Shown: positions 13,232 to 43,629 of the stretch, piece by piece
How the letters are laid out: the number at the start of each line of letters is the position of its first letter
How positions within the stretch are numbered: position 1 is the stretch's first letter
Sequence record: MK373773.1
Origin: Escherichia phage vB_EcoP_KAW1A4500
Reading direction: 5' to 3' (one strand)
DNA: 44,241 nucleotides
Program-made: the position numbers and the translations under genes
Notes under the pieces: model-generated
What the model saw: the letters and a program-made list of their open reading frames with translations, nothing else
Told to the model about the DNA's origin: nothing
The model's database searches: none

Positions 13232-13254
13232 ATTTACTGGACACTATAGAAGGA
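13232..13254 (+). promoter_or_regulatory. Phage RNAP promoter P4 (ATTTACTGGACACTATAGAAGGA)
   Basis: Consensus 23-mer, intergenic. Confidence 0.8.
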
Positions 13255-23482: not shown

Positions 23483-23505
23483 ATTTACTGGACACTATAG
23501 AAGGG
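23483..23505 (+). promoter_or_regulatory. Phage RNAP promoter P8 for capsid gene (ATTTACTGGACACTATAGAAGGG)
   Basis: Consensus 23-mer; transcript would begin with a GGGAGA/TCTCCC hairpin (23503..23519). Confidence 0.82.
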
Positions 23506-23555: not shown

Positions 23556-24764
23556 ATGTCTACACCGAATACTCTGACTAACGTTGCTGTATCTGCATCC
23601 GGTGAGGTTGACAGCCTTCTCATTGAGAAGTTTAATGGTAAGGTCAATGAGCAGTACCTAAAAGGTGAGAACATTCTGTCCTACTTTGATGTACAAACTG
23701 TTACTGGCACTAACACAGTGAGCAACAAATATTTGGGCGAAACTGAGTTGCAGGTGCTAGCACCGGGTCAGTCTCCTAATGCCACCCCTACTCAGGCGGA
23801 TAAAAACCAGTTGGTAATTGATACCACTGTCATTGCTCGTAACACTGTGGCTCACATCCACGATGTACAAGGTGACATCGATAGCCTGAAACCAAAACTG
23901 GCTATGAACCAAGCCAAGCAACTGAAACGTCTGGAAGACCAGATGGCAATTCAGCAGATGCTGTTAGGCGGTATTGCTAACACCAAGGCCAAACGTAACA
24001 AGCCGCGTGTTAAAGGGCATGGCTTCTCTATCAACGTTAACGTAACTGAGAGTGAAGCACTGGCTAACCCTCAGTATGTTATGGCTGCGGTAGAGTATGC
24101 TCTGGAGCAACAGCTTGAGCAGGAAGTGGACATCTCTGATGTAGCTATCATGATGCCGTGGAAGTTCTTCAATGCTCTGCGTGATGCAGACCGAATTGTA
24201 GATAAGACTTACACTATCAGCCAGTCTGGTGCAACCATTAATGGCTTCGTTCTCTCTTCTTATAACTGCCCTGTGATCCCGTCTAACCGATTCCCTACCT
24301 TCGCTCAGGATCAGGCTCACCACCTGTTGTCTAATGAAGATAACGGCTATCGTTATGACCCTATCGCAGAGATGAATGGTGCAGTTGCTGTTCTGTTCAC
24401 TGCCGACGCACTGCTGGTGGGTCGTACCATTGAAGTGACTGGTGACATCTTCTATGAGAAGAAAGAGAAGACTTATTACATTGACACCTTCATGGCTGAG
24501 GGTGCAATCCCTGACCGTTGGGAAGCAGTGTCTGTAGTTACCACTAAACGTAATGCAACTACTGGTGCTGCTGAAGGTTCTGGTGATGATCACGCAACCG
24601 TACTGGCTCGTGCACAGCGTAAGGCTGTATATGTCAAAACCGAAGGTGCTGCGGCTGCATTCTCTGCTGCCCCAGCAGGTATCCAAGCGGAAGACCTTGT
24701 AGCGGCGGTACGTGCTGTAATGGCAAATGACATCAAGCCGACTGCAATGAAACCTGCTGAGTAA
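23556..24764 (+). CDS. Major capsid protein
   Basis: 402 aa; own strong promoter and strong terminator downstream; after scaffold as in T7 gene 10. Confidence 0.85.
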   Translation: MSTPNTLTNVAVSASGEVDSLLIEKFNGKVNEQYLKGENILSYFDVQTVTGTNTVSNKYLGETELQVLAPGQSPNATPTQADKNQLVIDTTVIARNTVAHIHDVQGDIDSLKPKLAMNQAKQLKRLEDQMAIQQMLLGGIANTKAKRNKPRVKGHGFSINVNVTESEALANPQYVMAAVEYALEQQLEQEVDISDVAIMMPWKFFNALRDADRIVDKTYTISQSGATINGFVLSSYNCPVIPSNRFPTFAQDQAHHLLSNEDNGYRYDPIAEMNGAVAVLFTADALLVGRTIEVTGDIFYEKKEKTYYIDTFMAEGAIPDRWEAVSVVTTKRNATTGAAEGSGDDHATVLARAQRKAVYVKTEGAAAAFSAAPAGIQAEDLVAAVRAVMANDIKPTAMKPAE

Positions 24765-38348: not shown

Positions 38349-38369
38349 TTACTGGACACTATAGAAGGA
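38347..38369 (+). promoter_or_regulatory. Phage RNAP promoter P9 (AATTACTGGACACTATAGAAGGA)
   Basis: Consensus 23-mer overlapping the terminase stop; positional analogue of T7 phiOR. Confidence 0.75.
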
Positions 38370-38460
38370 AGGCCAGATAATAAGAGAAATAATAGGTAAT
38401 ATAGGTTAACCTAGGTTATATAGGTATGCCTTAGTATGGGTGTACTCCTGTACACCCTAT
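38370..38460. other. AT-rich TAGG-repeat element plus 8-bp-stem hairpin downstream of P9
   Basis: AATAATAGGTAATATAGGTTAACCTAGGTTATATAGGTAT resembles 6700..6745 and 13258..13300; hairpin GGGTGTAC-TCCT-GTACACCC at 38438..38457. Confidence 0.4.
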
Positions 38461-38503: not shown

Positions 38504-38779
38504 ATGGCTAATGATTATAGTAGTCAACCATTAACAGGTAAGTCTAAGAGAAAGCAGGTACAACCTGTAAGTGAAGAACTAATGCTTCCGGTAATCCCAA
38601 AAGAGGCAGCTAGTAAGAAAAGCAATGTTATTAATGATGCCACCAAATCAGGTAAACAGAAAGGGGCCATGGTATGCCTTGAAGTGGACGGTGCATTGAA
38701 GATTGCTATCGCTGTTGATGGCAAAGAAGATTCAGAGTGGAAGTTAGTGACAGGGGAACCCACTGTTACCCCAGTTTAA
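38504..38779 (+). CDS. Paralog family member 1 (91 aa), hypothetical late protein
   Basis: ORF track; shares SGKQxGAMV...IAIAVDGKE...W core with the next two ORFs. Confidence 0.6.
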   Translation: MANDYSSQPLTGKSKRKQVQPVSEELMLPVIPKEAASKKSNVINDATKSGKQKGAMVCLEVDGALKIAIAVDGKEDSEWKLVTGEPTVTPV

Positions 38780-38797
38780 GAGAAGGAGGAAGATTAC

Positions 38798-39085
38798 ATG
38801 GCTAAATATGGTACTACAGGTTCTGTTACGGGTCAGGCTTTTCGAGTGAAAGCAGTACAAACTATTGCAACGGCAATTCCTATGCCTGTTGTTGCTGAAG
38901 AAGACCTTAAGAAGAAAGATCATCCTATCAACATCAAATATTTATCAGGTAAACAGAGAGGTGCAATGGTTGTTATTTCGAGAGCGGACACAACCGTGCA
39001 TATTGCTGTTGCACGTGGTAGTGAGCCCACCGACGCTTGGGATGTAACTGCTATGGATATCACTGCTGTTACACCAGGGGAGTGA
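38798..39085 (+). CDS. Paralog family member 2 (95 aa), hypothetical late protein
   Basis: ORF track; motif KYLSGKQRGAMVVISRADTTVHIAVARGSEPTDAW; AAGGAGGA RBS. Confidence 0.6.
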   Translation: MAKYGTTGSVTGQAFRVKAVQTIATAIPMPVVAEEDLKKKDHPINIKYLSGKQRGAMVVISRADTTVHIAVARGSEPTDAWDVTAMDITAVTPGE

Positions 39086-39092
39086 TATTATC

Positions 39093-39770
39093 GTGTTAGG
39101 TATTACAGGACAACGAAGTGTAAGTCATCAAGCTAAGGTTGCCACGGAAGTGGCTCCTATCGTTGATATCTCAGATGTGTCTGACGCTAACTCTTATCTA
39201 AACCAAAAGTACCTATCAGGTAAACAGGAAGGATATACTGTTCTGACTAAGAAAGGTTCACGTTATTCATTGTATGCTGCAACAGGTTCTAAGCCAGAAG
39301 ATAAGTGGTTGCCTTTAGAGCAAGCAACCCTACCTGATTCGAGTGCATTAGGGCTAATTGACACCATCGATGTTGAAGTTGCAAGTGCAAGCGACACAGT
39401 AGAGGTTAATGTAACCAAAGAGAGGACTGTGTGCATCCAGACGCCTATGAAGGACTTAGCAGGTGATACAGTTTACCGGCAAGAATTGACTGCCAACATT
39501 AACCTTACCATTAATGAAAACGGAAGCCCAAGCGATACGGTTAAATTAAACATATCAATTCCTAATTTGCCAGGAACATCTAGTGGGTCTTACTATACAG
39601 TTGACAATGTGCTGTGTACTTCTTTTGGAGACGACAGTCCTGTTATTGCCAATATAGATGTCGATAAGGCTACCACTAACTTGATTGCTGTTACACTTCG
39701 TAAAGAGACGGCAACAGATATTAGGCTGTCTCTTGTAATTAGGTGGTCAATGCCAGTGGGGGTTGTATAA
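39093..39770 (+). CDS. Paralog family member 3 (225 aa) with C-terminal extension
   Basis: ORF track; motif KYLSGKQEGYTVLTKKGSRYSLYAATGSKPEDKW followed by a Ser/Thr/Asn-rich extension. Confidence 0.6.
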   Translation: MLGITGQRSVSHQAKVATEVAPIVDISDVSDANSYLNQKYLSGKQEGYTVLTKKGSRYSLYAATGSKPEDKWLPLEQATLPDSSALGLIDTIDVEVASASDTVEVNVTKERTVCIQTPMKDLAGDTVYRQELTANINLTINENGSPSDTVKLNISIPNLPGTSSGSYYTVDNVLCTSFGDDSPVIANIDVDKATTNLIAVTLRKETATDIRLSLVIRWSMPVGVV

Positions 39771-40114
39771 TGCTTAACAAATACTTCAAGCGTAAAGAGT
39801 TTGCTTGCCGTTGTGGGTGCGGTACATCCACTGTTGATGCTGAGTTACTACAGGTAGTAACAGATGTGCGTGAGCACTTTGGTACTCCTGTTGTTATCAC
39901 TTCTGGTCATCGCTGCGCCAAGCACAATGCTAATGTAGGTGGAGCTAAGAACTCTATGCATCTTACTGGTAAGGCTGCTGACATTAAGGTACGAGGCATC
40001 TTACCTTCTGATGTACATAAGTACCTTACTGATAAGTACCAAGGCAAGTATGGTATTGGTAAATATACCTCCTTTACTCATATTGATGTACGTGACGGGT
40101 GTTCACGATGGTAG
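39770..40114 (+). CDS. Endolysin, peptidase M15-like (114 aa)
   Basis: ORF track 39743..40114 with ATG at 39770; zinc-peptidase pattern SGHRCAKHNANVGGAKNSMHLTGKAADI...HIDVR. Confidence 0.75.
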   Translation: MLNKYFKRKEFACRCGCGTSTVDAELLQVVTDVREHFGTPVVITSGHRCAKHNANVGGAKNSMHLTGKAADIKVRGILPSDVHKYLTDKYQGKYGIGKYTSFTHIDVRDGCSRW

Positions 40115-40688: not shown

Positions 40689-40711
40689 ATTTACTGGACA
40701 CTATAGAAGAG
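40689..40711 (+). promoter_or_regulatory. Phage RNAP promoter P10 for tailspike genes (ATTTACTGGACACTATAGAAGAG)
   Basis: Exact consensus 23-mer upstream of the tailspike remnant and endosialidase. Confidence 0.85.
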
Positions 40712-40790
40712 ATGAGATAGTGCCGTTCTTTTGAGCGGCCTATTACTAGCCAATCTTCATAGGGAGGGTTGGGAAGTAATAGGAGAGTAT

Positions 40791-41126
40791 ATGGCTAAGT
40801 TAACTAAACCCAAGACAACGGGCTTACTACATAGAGATACTGTACTAGCTAACTTATTAGATAATTTACTATCTAAAAGGCGTGTTACATTTGAAGGTGT
40901 AGCCCCAAGTGAAGATACTAAAATTGAGATAGAAGTACCTGTAACAGGAGACTTAGATTCTTCGTGGGCATCAATTGTATCATTAAGTACACCTGCACTT
41001 TGTACAGCTTGGATCACTAAACTGTCAGATACTACTTTAGAGATTCATGTCTTTCATACAGCACAAGTAGAAATAGACATAGAGGTAGATGTTTACGTTC
41101 TAGGTAAGCACACTGTCAGTGCGTAA
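40791..41126 (+). CDS. Truncated tailspike N-terminal (adaptor-binding) remnant, 111 aa
   Basis: ORF track 40731..41126 with ATG at 40791 after AGGAG; a roughly 111-aa ORF before the endosialidase is described for phage K1E (recalled literature). Confidence 0.6.
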   Translation: MAKLTKPKTTGLLHRDTVLANLLDNLLSKRRVTFEGVAPSEDTKIEIEVPVTGDLDSSWASIVSLSTPALCTAWITKLSDTTLEIHVFHTAQVEIDIEVDVYVLGKHTVSA

Positions 41127-41193: not shown

Positions 41194-43629
41194 ATGATTC
41201 AAAGACTAGGTTCTTCATTAGTTAAATTCAAGAGTAAAATAGCAGGTGCAATCTGGCGTAACTTGGATGACAAGCTCACCGAGGTTGTATCGCTTAAAGA
41301 TTTTGGAGCCAAAGGTGATGGTAAGACAAACGACCAAGATGCAGTAAATGCAGCTATGGCTTCAGGTAAGAGAATTGATGGTGCTGGTGCTACTTACAAA
41401 GTATCATCTTTACCTGATATGGAGCGATTCTATAACACCCGCTTCGTATGGGAACGTTTAGCAGGTCAACCTCTTTACTATGTGAGTAAAGGTTTTATCA
41501 ATGGTGAACTATATAAAATCACGGATAACCCTTATTACAATGCTTGGCCTCAAGACAAAGCGTTTGTATATGAGAACGTGATATATGCACCTTACATGGG
41601 TAGTGACCGTCATGGTGTTAGTCGTCTGCATGTATCATGGGTTAAGTCTGGTGACGATGGTCAAACATGGTCTACACCAGAGTGGTTAACTGATCTGCAT
41701 CCAGATTACCCTACAGTGAACTATCATTGTATGAGTATGGGTGTATGTCGCAACCGTCTGTTTGCCATGATTGAAACACGTACTTTAGCCAAGAACGCAC
41801 TAACCAATTGTGCATTGTGGGATCGCCCTATGTCTCGTAGTCTGCATCTTACTGGTGGTATCACTAAGGCTGCAAATCAGCGTTATGCAACAATCCATGT
41901 ACCTGATCACGGATTATTCGTGGGCGATTTTGTTAGCTTCTCTAATTCTGCGGTAACAGGTGTAACTGGTGATATGAAAGTTGCAACAGTTATAGATAAG
42001 GACAACTTCACGGTTCTTACAGCCAATCAGCAGACCTCTGATTTGAACAATGCTGGAAAGAATTGGCACATGGGTACTTCCTTCCATAAGTCTCCATGGC
42101 GTAAGACAGATCTTGGCCTGATACCTCGTGTCACTGAAGTTCATAGCTTTGCTACTATTGATAACAATGGCTTTGTTATGGGTTATCACCAAGGCGACGT
42201 AGCTCCACGCGAAGTTGGTCTTTTCTACTTCCCTGATGCTTTTAACAATCCATCTAATTATGTTCGTCGTCAGATACCATCTGAGTACGAACCGGATGCT
42301 GCAGAGCCATGCATCAAGTACTATGACGGTGTGTTATACCTTATCACTCGTGGTACTCGTGGTGACAGGCTTGGAAGCTCTTTGCATCGCAGTAGAGATA
42401 TAGGTCAAACTTGGGAGTCACTAAGATTTCCACATAATGTGCATCATACTACTTTACCGTTTGCTAAGGTAGGAGATGATCTTATTATGTTTGGTTCAGA
42501 ACGTGCAGAAAATGAATGGGAAGCAGGTGCACCTGATGATCGTTACAAGGCATCTTATCCCCGCACCTTCTATGCACGATTGAATGTAAACAAGTGGAGT
42601 GCAGATGACATTGAATGGGTTAACATCACAGACCAAATCTATCAGGGTGACATTGTTAACTCCAGTGTAGGTGTAGGTTCGGTGGTAGTTAAAGACAGTT
42701 ACATTTACTATATCTTTGGTGGTGAAAACCATTTCAACCCAATGACTTATGGTGACAACAAAGATAAAGACCCATTTATTGGACATGGACACCCTACTGA
42801 TATATACTGCTATAAGATGCAGATTGCAAATGACAGTCGTGTATCTCGTAAGTTTACATATGGTGCAACTCCTGGTCAGGCTATACCTACTTTCATGGGT
42901 ACTGATGGTATTCGTACTATTCCTGCTCCACTTCACTTATCAGGAGAGGTAGTTGCCGCAGATATGACTGTAGAACATCTTACCCTGAAGGCGAGTACAA
43001 GTGCTAATATTCGCTCAGAGATGCTGATGGAAGGTGAATATGGGTTCATTGGTAAGACTATACCAACGGATAACCCAACCGCACAACGTGTTATCATCTC
43101 GGGTGGAGAAGGTACAGCAGCAGATAAAGGTGCTCAGATTACCCTACATGGAGCAGGTTCTAGTACTTCTAGACGCGCAGTGTATAATGCCAATGAGCAC
43201 TTGTTCAAAAGTGGGGCTATCATGCCATACAACGATAACCTGTACCCTGCTGGCGGTCCTCATAATAGATTCACCACTATCCATCTTACAAGTGACCCTA
43301 TTATTACATCGGATGCCACTCATAAGTATGGCTCACAAGGTATTGATGAGAGTGTACTAAAGGCATGGGGTAAGGTTGCCTTCAAGCAGTACAAGTTGAT
43401 TGGCGAGATGTCTCGTGGTGTGCATCACACTCACTTTGGTGTATTGGCACAAGACATTGTAGCTGCTTTTGCATCCGAAGGGTTAGATGCAATCGACTTC
43501 GGCATTGTCTCCTTCGAAGAAGGTCAGTTTGGTGTTAGATATAGTGAAATCTTAATCTTGGAGGCTGCTTATACTCGCTATCGTTTAGACAAGTTAGAGG
43601 AGATGTATGCCACTAATAAAAGCAGTTAA
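41194..43629 (+). CDS. Endo-N-acetylneuraminidase (endosialidase) tailspike, 811 aa
   Basis: Two Asp-box sialidase motifs (SGDDGQTW, SRDIGQTW); N-terminus MIQRLGSSLVKFKSKIAG...GAKGDGKTND and 811-aa length match K1E/K1-5 endosialidase as recalled. Confidence 0.88.
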   Translation: MIQRLGSSLVKFKSKIAGAIWRNLDDKLTEVVSLKDFGAKGDGKTNDQDAVNAAMASGKRIDGAGATYKVSSLPDMERFYNTRFVWERLAGQPLYYVSKGFINGELYKITDNPYYNAWPQDKAFVYENVIYAPYMGSDRHGVSRLHVSWVKSGDDGQTWSTPEWLTDLHPDYPTVNYHCMSMGVCRNRLFAMIETRTLAKNALTNCALWDRPMSRSLHLTGGITKAANQRYATIHVPDHGLFVGDFVSFSNSAVTGVTGDMKVATVIDKDNFTVLTANQQTSDLNNAGKNWHMGTSFHKSPWRKTDLGLIPRVTEVHSFATIDNNGFVMGYHQGDVAPREVGLFYFPDAFNNPSNYVRRQIPSEYEPDAAEPCIKYYDGVLYLITRGTRGDRLGSSLHRSRDIGQTWESLRFPHNVHHTTLPFAKVGDDLIMFGSERAENEWEAGAPDDRYKASYPRTFYARLNVNKWSADDIEWVNITDQIYQGDIVNSSVGVGSVVVKDSYIYYIFGGENHFNPMTYGDNKDKDPFIGHGHPTDIYCYKMQIANDSRVSRKFTYGATPGQAIPTFMGTDGIRTIPAPLHLSGEVVAADMTVEHLTLKASTSANIRSEMLMEGEYGFIGKTIPTDNPTAQRVIISGGEGTAADKGAQITLHGAGSSTSRRAVYNANEHLFKSGAIMPYNDNLYPAGGPHNRFTTIHLTSDPIITSDATHKYGSQGIDESVLKAWGKVAFKQYKLIGEMSRGVHHTHFGVLAQDIVAAFASEGLDAIDFGIVSFEEGQFGVRYSEILILEAAYTRYRLDKLEEMYATNKSS

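Follow-up and report, generated by a model that had tools for sequence, protein, structure and literature searches.

What is encoded between the terminase and lysis genes of K1E-like phages? The question is raised by three consecutive genes of Escherichia phage vB_EcoP_KAW1A4500, a Vectrevirus of the K1E/K1-5 branch of SP6-like Autographiviridae (Molineuxvirinae), whose 44,241-bp record is the whole stretch of DNA analyzed here (the window) and whose closest genomes in the phage collection are those of Vectrevirus Phi100-A (99.2%) and fTuEco01 (98.5%). The three genes code for proteins of 91, 95 and 225 amino acids (aa), which are identical in sequence to QBQ76755-57, each deposited as a 'hypothetical protein', and which we refer to as gp41, gp42 and gp43 (paralogues A, B and C). 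A first-pass annotation of the window had located these tandem open reading frames (ORFs) exactly and had proposed for them a rapidly evolving role in virion decoration, receptor interaction or lysis timing. Our analysis suggests, with a probability of about 0.6, that the three products are accessory proteins exposed on the outside of the virion, of a minor capsid, decoration or head-fibre kind, with a single anchor module of approximately 85 aa as their common base. The genes are members of a known, essentially uncharacterized family of SP6-like phages and not a new kind of system, while three features of this family, namely its three old orthogroups, the modular architecture of its long members and relatives in which exactly three modules are fused, appear to be undescribed in the searchable literature.

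The shared module and its age

gp41, gp42 and gp43 are paralogues. In BLASTP comparisons gp41 and gp42 aligned with E=1e-12 (34% identity over 93 aa), gp42 and gp43 with E=2e-9, and gp41 and gp43 with E=1e-3, and the Smith-Waterman scores of these pairs (z=17.4, 13.3 and 6.2, respectively) were reached by none of 2000 shuffled alignments, the control which the first-pass annotation itself had named and by which its shared motif proves significant. All three proteins also match the profile of phrog_2725 (gp41 E=2.6e-37, gp42 E=4.1e-42, gp43 E=3.7e-16), and gp43 additionally matches phrog_32357 over its full length (E=9e-118). The paralogous core that had been claimed earlier agrees with both kinds of evidence; the earlier failure to place the proteins in a known family is superseded, even if these phrogs have no Pfam, NCBIfam or PDB entry. 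Consistent with this, none of the three window proteins gave a Pfam match at E<=1 or an NCBIfam match, and when gp42, gp43, the family profile and two homologues from Klebsiella phage Kp7, gp45 and gp47, were searched by sequence against the PDB, no match to the module was returned.

The core is longer than the roughly 60 aa first described, because the shared region extends N-terminally to include TG[QK]..R....P[VI][VI], so that the module common to all three proteins comprises about 85 aa. Within the motif given earlier, SGKQxG...V, A...G and the tryptophan are indeed invariant, while KYL is found in only two of the three proteins, gp41 having ATKSGKQ instead. When 23 orthologues were added, the invariant columns were T-G near residue 11, R16, P30, N45, S-G-K-Q-x-G (50-55), V58, A72 and W81, and the resulting family signature, TG[QK]...P[VI][VI]...N...SGKQxG..V...A..G....W, is present in the window proteins. 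A profile scan of the whole window for the module detected no copy beyond gp41, gp42 and gp43. A Walker-A-like reading of SGKQKG was rejected on inspection, as the motif departs from GxxxxGK[ST] in a protein of insufficient size. The search for gp42 orthologues yielded 100 sequences, nearly all on contigs of about 44 kb. The 90%-identity clusters of window gp42 and gp43 and of Kp7 gp45-47 also include chromosomal 'hypothetical proteins' from Yersinia pseudotuberculosis, Salmonella enterica and Enterobacter hormaechei (on contigs of 8.6-43 kb), and these bacterial deposits probably represent phage contamination or a carried phage in the assemblies.

The module was found by tblastn in 180 phage records, at one to three places in each, and in every record opened it occupied the same locus. 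The layout of terL followed by module genes and the endolysin gene is common to K1-5, fTuEco01, mutPK1A2, SP6, PP1, KpH01, Kp7, AAPEc6, UKE2, K1E and Era103. Arrays of three genes occur in KAW1A4500, fTuEco01, mutPK1A2, 101117UKE2, SP6, PP1 and Kp7, and arrays of two genes, without the third, long paralogue, in K1-5, K1E and AAPEc6; Klebsiella phage vB_Kp_H01 carries four genes, and Era103 one short and one long gene. In a neighbour-joining tree of all modules the sequences clustered by position in the array and not by phage, resolving a type A (gp41-like, with TGK and TKSGKQ), a type B (gp42-like, with KYG..TGQAFR) and a type C (gp43-like, with a short N-terminus containing TGQR and usually a C-terminal extension). 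Paralogues A, B and C of the window clustered with the first, second and third positions of Kp7, respectively, and paralogue C in addition with the position-3 copy of SP6 and a metagenomic collagen-bearing member. The duplications therefore predate the split of the SP6-like phages of Escherichia, Salmonella, Klebsiella and Pectobacterium, and the three copies are, by this clustering, ancient orthogroups and not the recent and unusual local triplication assumed at first, three copies being kept at this locus throughout the SP6-like phages. On the same comparison the array varies in whether type C is present and in which distal domain it carries, the third copy alone being accessory.

The suggestion that the genes evolve rapidly was borne out when the window proteins were used as the reference for six Vectreviruses (K1-5, fTuEco01, mutPK1A2, AAPEc6, K1E and 101117UKE2). 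Within this genus the cassette diverges far faster than the flanking terL, whose product is 99-100% identical to that of the window in the first five phages and 95% identical in 101117UKE2, while identities ranged from 48 to 97% for gp41, from 62 to 97% for gp42 and from 31 to 98% for gp43. The pattern is mosaic: in mutPK1A2 gp41 and gp42 are only 48% and 62% identical to their window counterparts, but gp43 is 94% identical, and in K1-5 the values for paralogues A and B are 90% and 81%. Fast divergence together with a mosaic C-terminal domain is expected of exposed proteins that interact with the host.

Exchangeable distal domains and fused relatives

Type-C proteins join the same anchor module to unrelated C-terminal domains. 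In Kp7 gp47 this is an immunoglobulin (Ig) domain matching PF13927 and PF13895, 'Hoc-like head decoration' phrogs and the PDB decoration proteins 5lxk and 8zvi (T5 pb10-type). A second homologue (P0222), whose gene follows terL and two short copies at this locus, carries about 23 collagen triplets (PF01391) and a domain common to N4-like and Aeromonas phage proteins; a third (P0168) ends in a tail-needle knob of the Sf6 type (PF16532, E=2e-30), and gp48 of Era103 contains a segment matching a 'head fiber' phrog. The distal domain of window gp43 belongs to phrog_32357, occurs in only 14 phage records, all of them SP6-like, and is only 25-32% identical between two Vectreviruses; a Pfam search of gp43 gave no Ig match. 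Pairwise hhalign comparisons between the classes of C-terminal domain revealed no relationship (probabilities <=0.2%). The extension of gp43 is Ser/Thr/Asn-rich, as had been noted before (28% Ser+Thr+Asn compared with 15% in the terminase), and it was predicted as a folded eight-stranded beta domain and not as a low-complexity tail, albeit with low model confidence. On the metagenomic contig L011 (5965-7598) the type-C gene with about 23 collagen triplets encodes a C-terminal domain common to proteins of the N4-like coliphages Bp4 and pSb-1 and to Aeromonas phage 'collagen-like' proteins, a distribution which indicates domain traffic between unrelated phage families.

A second line of evidence comes from a profile search of 1.84 billion cluster representatives, which gave 260 matches. 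Among the best 150 of these, 83 were single short modules, 18 had an N-terminal module followed by an extension of at least 60 aa, and about 44 were proteins of 260-300 aa with three modules; three modules were detected in 29 of the latter and two in approximately 15 others of equal length, while no protein among the 150 had more than three. An extension following three modules was found in P0169 and P0184, and also in P0180, where two modules were detected. Where the genomic context of these metagenomic relatives was available, the fused gene directly follows a T7-type terL: in L009 the fragment ahead of it shares 43% identity with terL of the window, and L019 has the order terS-terL-fused gene. 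L018 (540-2627), an extreme variant of the array, carries two three-module genes behind the terL end, the first bare (283 aa) and the second with a distal domain (407 aa), a short-then-long tandem that mirrors the succession of gp41/gp42 and gp43 in the window. A search of viral contigs for loci related to the fused protein P0109 gave nothing.

The fusion of modules that are separate elsewhere is classical evidence of joint action, and since the module count in the fused proteins is constantly three, a threefold or pseudo-threefold unit is suggested. Two observations bear indirectly on trimer formation, the exactly three modules of the fused proteins and the collagen repeats and Sf6 knob of the type-C homologues. 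Collagen and the Sf6 knob are trimeric folds, so that the stalks of these homologues argue for trimerization of type C, and the fused forms for three modules making up one unit. The fused and split three-module forms provide a clean case of gene fusion or fission, which predicts physical association of the separate proteins.

Proposed place and role on the virion

The direct evidence that the family occurs in virions comes from Klebsiella phage Kp7 (ON148527, Molineuxvirinae). Its locus comprises terL, genes for proteins of 88, 88 and 178 aa (gp45, gp46 and gp47) and the endolysin gene, and the depositors, a cryo-electron microscopy group, named gp45 and gp46 'minor capsid protein' and gp47 'minor capsid protein with Ig-domain'. 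When purified Kp7 was subjected to SDS-PAGE and mass spectrometry, 'minor capsid proteins (gp32, gp45, gp46, and gp47)' were among the bands (preprint 10.1101/2024.05.19.594906). The Kp7 proteins are homologous to those of the window, with 44% identity between gp41 and Kp7 gp45, the same TG[QK]/SGKQxG/W signature and the same order of terL, two short genes, a long gene and the endolysin gene in a phage of the same subfamily. In contrast, the Ig distal domain of Kp7 gp47 is unrelated to the beta-rich domain of window gp43 (12% identity; no Pfam match for the latter), and Kp7 is the phage in which virion presence was measured. The window capsid protein matches PDB entry 7y3t (E=1e-182, 75% identity) and the tail adaptor matches 7y22, entries which apparently belong to unpublished Kp7 structures. 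Of the functions proposed in the first-pass annotation, virion decoration or receptor interaction is accordingly the best supported, given that syntenic homologues have been detected in purified virions.

AlphaFold2 models of gp42 and gp43, computed as monomers and of low confidence (predicted local distance difference test (pLDDT) of 68 and 61), consist of a coil arm and beta strands, with helices of only 3-5 residues. In gp42 a conserved, low-confidence N-terminal arm (residues 1-30) precedes a small beta domain (31-84), which forms a sheet of three to four strands. Residues 1-20 of the arm have pLDDT values of 40-47, although they are the most conserved stretch of the module. Conserved yet disordered arms typically become ordered on a partner, as in several decoration proteins, and high conservation combined with a pLDDT below 50 is what would be expected of a segment that folds on a partner.

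We therefore favour, at the probability given above, a location of these proteins on the outside of the particle. The module would consist of an unstructured N-terminal arm (TG[QK]..R...P[VI][VI]) and a small beta domain with the SGKQxG loop and the conserved tryptophan, and it would dock on the particle exterior, the HK97-fold capsid lattice being the most likely site, and binding would order the arm. gp41 and gp42 would represent anchor-only forms, while gp43 would combine the anchor with a beta-sandwich-like distal domain of about 140 aa that is freely swapped between phages and probably confers weak, reversible adhesion to glycans of the host surface or the environment. The modules are likely to work in groups of three: each paralogue may form a homotrimer, at sites that are not equivalent, or A, B and C may combine into a 1:1:1 heterotrimer. 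A surface role is also favoured by the dedicated late promoter with perfect consensus and by the strong ribosome-binding sites of gp41 and gp42.

Several observations weigh against this assignment. The Kp7 mass spectrometry is the sole direct evidence found for the family in virions; it comes from a preprint combined with depositor annotation, and in KAW1A4500 itself each of the three genes carries a hypothetical label only. The label 'minor capsid protein' in Kp7 includes gp32, a small protein encoded beside the portal gene, and may therefore mean merely a small protein found in virions. Although the related capsid 7y3t has been deposited, searches with Kp7 gp45, gp47 and the family profile found no chain in the PDB for the module; an ordered decoration of the lattice is therefore undocumented and may have gone unseen. 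Fold searches with the module models gave nothing significant, and the pLDDT values are low. The two-copy phages K1-5, K1E and AAPEc6 fit a strict 1:1:1 heterotrimer poorly. Finally, the capsid protein, too, varies in a mosaic fashion among Vectreviruses (84-99% identity), and in the small sample of six phages its divergence showed no clear co-variation with that of gp41 and gp42.

Among the alternatives, the one that survives best, although we consider it unlikely, places the proteins at the portal, neck or tail as whisker- or collar-like short fibres instead of on the capsid lattice. The trimeric fibre-type distal domains of the homologues (collagen and the Sf6 tail-needle knob) would suit such appendages, tail proteins and a 'putative neck whiskers protein' (9occ) are also among the matches of the Ig domain of Kp7 gp47, some depositors label proteins similar to Kp7 gp47 as 'tail protein', and the genes share a late operon with the tailspike genes; moreover, the capsid entry deposited for the close relative contains no model of a family member. 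However, the tail entry of that relative, 7y22, is equally devoid of a family match, the group that solved the Kp7 particle annotated minor capsid and not tail proteins, and the strong expression signals of gp41 and gp42 would suggest a high copy number.

Still less probable is that the proteins are non-structural late products, such as chaperones of tailspike or capsid assembly or modulators of lysis or superinfection, and that their signal in Kp7 virions reflects carry-over. Such a role could be read from the position of the genes directly ahead of the lysis cassette, to which they are translationally coupled, from the single preprint and unpublished-structure source of the virion evidence and from a family that has no deposited structural model. 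Nevertheless, gp41-gp43 contain no membrane or signal segments and match no enzyme, holin, antiholin or spanin family, which speaks against the lysis-timing function proposed earlier; distal domains of the Ig, collagen, knob and head-fibre kinds do not sit easily with regulation inside the cell; and the locus is kept where the lysis genes differ, as in Era103 with its signal-anchor-release (SAR) lysozyme. Thiolases are about 390 aa long, and the identification of the family as acetyl-CoA acetyltransferases (thiolases) in RefSeq and PHROGs, for which propagated annotation is the sole argument, is for practical purposes refuted by proteins of 91-95 aa, about a quarter of that size, with a predicted fold of a disordered arm and a sheet of three to four strands and with no Pfam match at E<=1, no NCBIfam match and no PDB sequence match. 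The name has spread to dozens of phage proteins of 88-100 aa, to phrog_2725 and to several papers, relatives labelled in this way including L001 (3661-4248), L005 (2872-3744) and L006 (2651-3264), and it should be dropped from both databases.

Returning to the proposed surface proteins, the closest counterparts apart from Kp7 are gp41 and gp42 of K1E and K1-5 and gp42, gp43 and gp44 of SP6 (phrog_2725), which include orthologues of A and B with the same promoter, leader and position, whereas K1-5, K1E and AAPEc6 differ from the window by the absence of the third, long paralogue. A similar design is known from another branch of the Autographiviridae, where the alpha-claw/alpha-paw proteins of Pectobacterium phage PhiM1 (gp44/gp43), Shigella phage HRP29 and the phiKMV-like phage Ar-KM (gp55/gp54) are short and long adjacent paralogues that share a capsid-binding motif and occupy non-equivalent lattice sites, the alpha-claw motif being a dimeric helix-turn-helix (four-helix) bundle at 2-fold sites (PMC11440229; 10.64898/2026.05.18.726046). 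In both cases the long paralogue adds a projecting part, a fibre or spike in the alpha-claw system. However, the alpha-claw is helical and dimeric, while the window module is predicted to be an arm with beta structure and appears to work in threes, and the window family gave no sequence match to PDB chains, including those of PhiM1, HRP29 and Ar-KM. The likeness is thus one of design, an analogy and not family membership. Likewise, Hoc of T4, pb10 of T5 and gp8.5 of phi29 are dispensable accessory proteins that combine an anchor with a displayed adhesion domain; a Hoc/pb10-like Ig domain is carried by the third paralogue of Kp7 but not by window gp43, and the anchor modules of Hoc, pb10 and gp8.5 are unrelated in sequence to that of the window.

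A more far-reaching proposal, which we regard as tentative and rather doubtful as a whole, is that the module represents an undescribed capsid- or virion-anchoring fold of threefold or pseudo-threefold symmetry, realized as three genes, as homotrimers with trimeric stalks or as single chains. It might then serve as a universal socket for exchangeable surface domains, with the paralogues partitioned among non-equivalent lattice sites, and form a programmable, fast-evolving coat that influences adsorption or environmental persistence. Phages of the K1E/K1-5/SP6 type are used as models and as therapeutic phages, and textbook inventories of their virions list only capsid, portal, tail, internal proteins, adaptor and tailspikes; virion proteomics of K1E, K1-5, SP6, fTuEco01 or KAW1A4500 was not found in the searchable literature. 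If gp41-43 are surface proteins, these particles have an unrecognized, rapidly diversifying outer layer. Such a layer could have consequences for adsorption kinetics, for stability and immunogenicity and for clearance in vivo, and it would be a natural place to display foreign domains, also on therapeutic K1 phages.

Signals and neighbours of the locus

Coordinates of the paralogue cassette and its signals in the window
Feature	Position	Strand	Remarks
Late promoter core GGACACTATAGAAGGA, SP6/K1E-type phage RNA polymerase	38354..38369	+	Ninth of ten in the window
GC-rich 8-bp hairpin GGGTGTAC-TCCT-GTACACCC	38438..38457	+	In the 5' leader between promoter and first gene; from a terminator-like scan
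Paralogue A, gp41 type (K1E/K1-5), KAW1A4500_00049	38504..38779	+	91 aa, ATG start; single module; signature TGK...TKSGKQKG...W
Paralogue B, gp42 type, KAW1A4500_00050	38798..39085	+	95 aa, ATG start; single module
Paralogue C (gp43, 225 aa), N-terminal anchor module, residues 1-81	39093..39335	+	GTG start; short N-terminus begins LGITGQR; whole ORF 39093-39770
Paralogue C, linker and lineage-restricted C-terminal beta-rich domain, about 140 aa	39336..39770	+	Proposed outward-facing domain
Endolysin, M15 peptidase	39770..40114	+	PF08291, E=1.4e-32; context, outside the family

A scan of the window with the phage promoter consensus gave 10 matches compared with 0.58 expected. The consensus is perfect only at 13239 and at the promoter ahead of gp41, which is the ninth of the ten and corresponds to the promoter that the first-pass annotation had placed upstream of the genes; the promoter of the capsid gene at 23490 has one mismatch. 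The ninth promoter drives the three paralogue genes together with the lysis cassette, whose endolysin had also been recognized correctly. The hairpin of the leader is found approximately 70 nt past this promoter and about 45 nt before gene 41 with a weak T-rich tract behind it, and it may be an element for RNA processing (RNase III) or stability, or a weak or leaky terminator for transcripts reading through from the terminase gene. The 5' leader as a whole folds no better than shuffled sequences (z=-0.2). The ribosome-binding site of gp42, AAGGAGG, lies directly ahead of the gene, and that of gp43 is weaker than those of the other two genes; the stop codon of gp43 overlaps the ATG of the endolysin gene (TAATG). 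As the reading frame of gp43 has no stop codon from 39048 onwards and runs over the end of gp42 in the +1 frame relative to it, a programmed frameshift from gp42 to gp43 was considered; it is not favoured, because the type-C orthologues of Kp7 and KpH01 start independently with ATG and the same motif, and because GGGGAG is present 10 nt before the GTG.

Two further genes of the window deserve mention. The major capsid ORF (23556-24764) encodes 402 aa, all of which are matched by relatives from Vectrevirus, Zindervirus and Proteus phages, while Kp7-like, Erwinia and Vibrio relatives and PDB entry 7y3t (363 aa) match residues 1-361 only. The E. coli/Salmonella branch therefore carries a C-terminal capsid extension of about 40 aa, which by analogy with T7 10B is possibly exposed on the surface. 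Further downstream, an ORF of 131 aa (40731-41126), which probably starts internally to give 111 aa, is a full-length match to phrog_15083. It is located behind a phage promoter of its own (40696-40711) and just upstream of the 811-aa endosialidase tailspike (41194-43629), and its counterpart in K1E is the small truncated 'gp46', which takes the place of the K5 lyase of K1-5.

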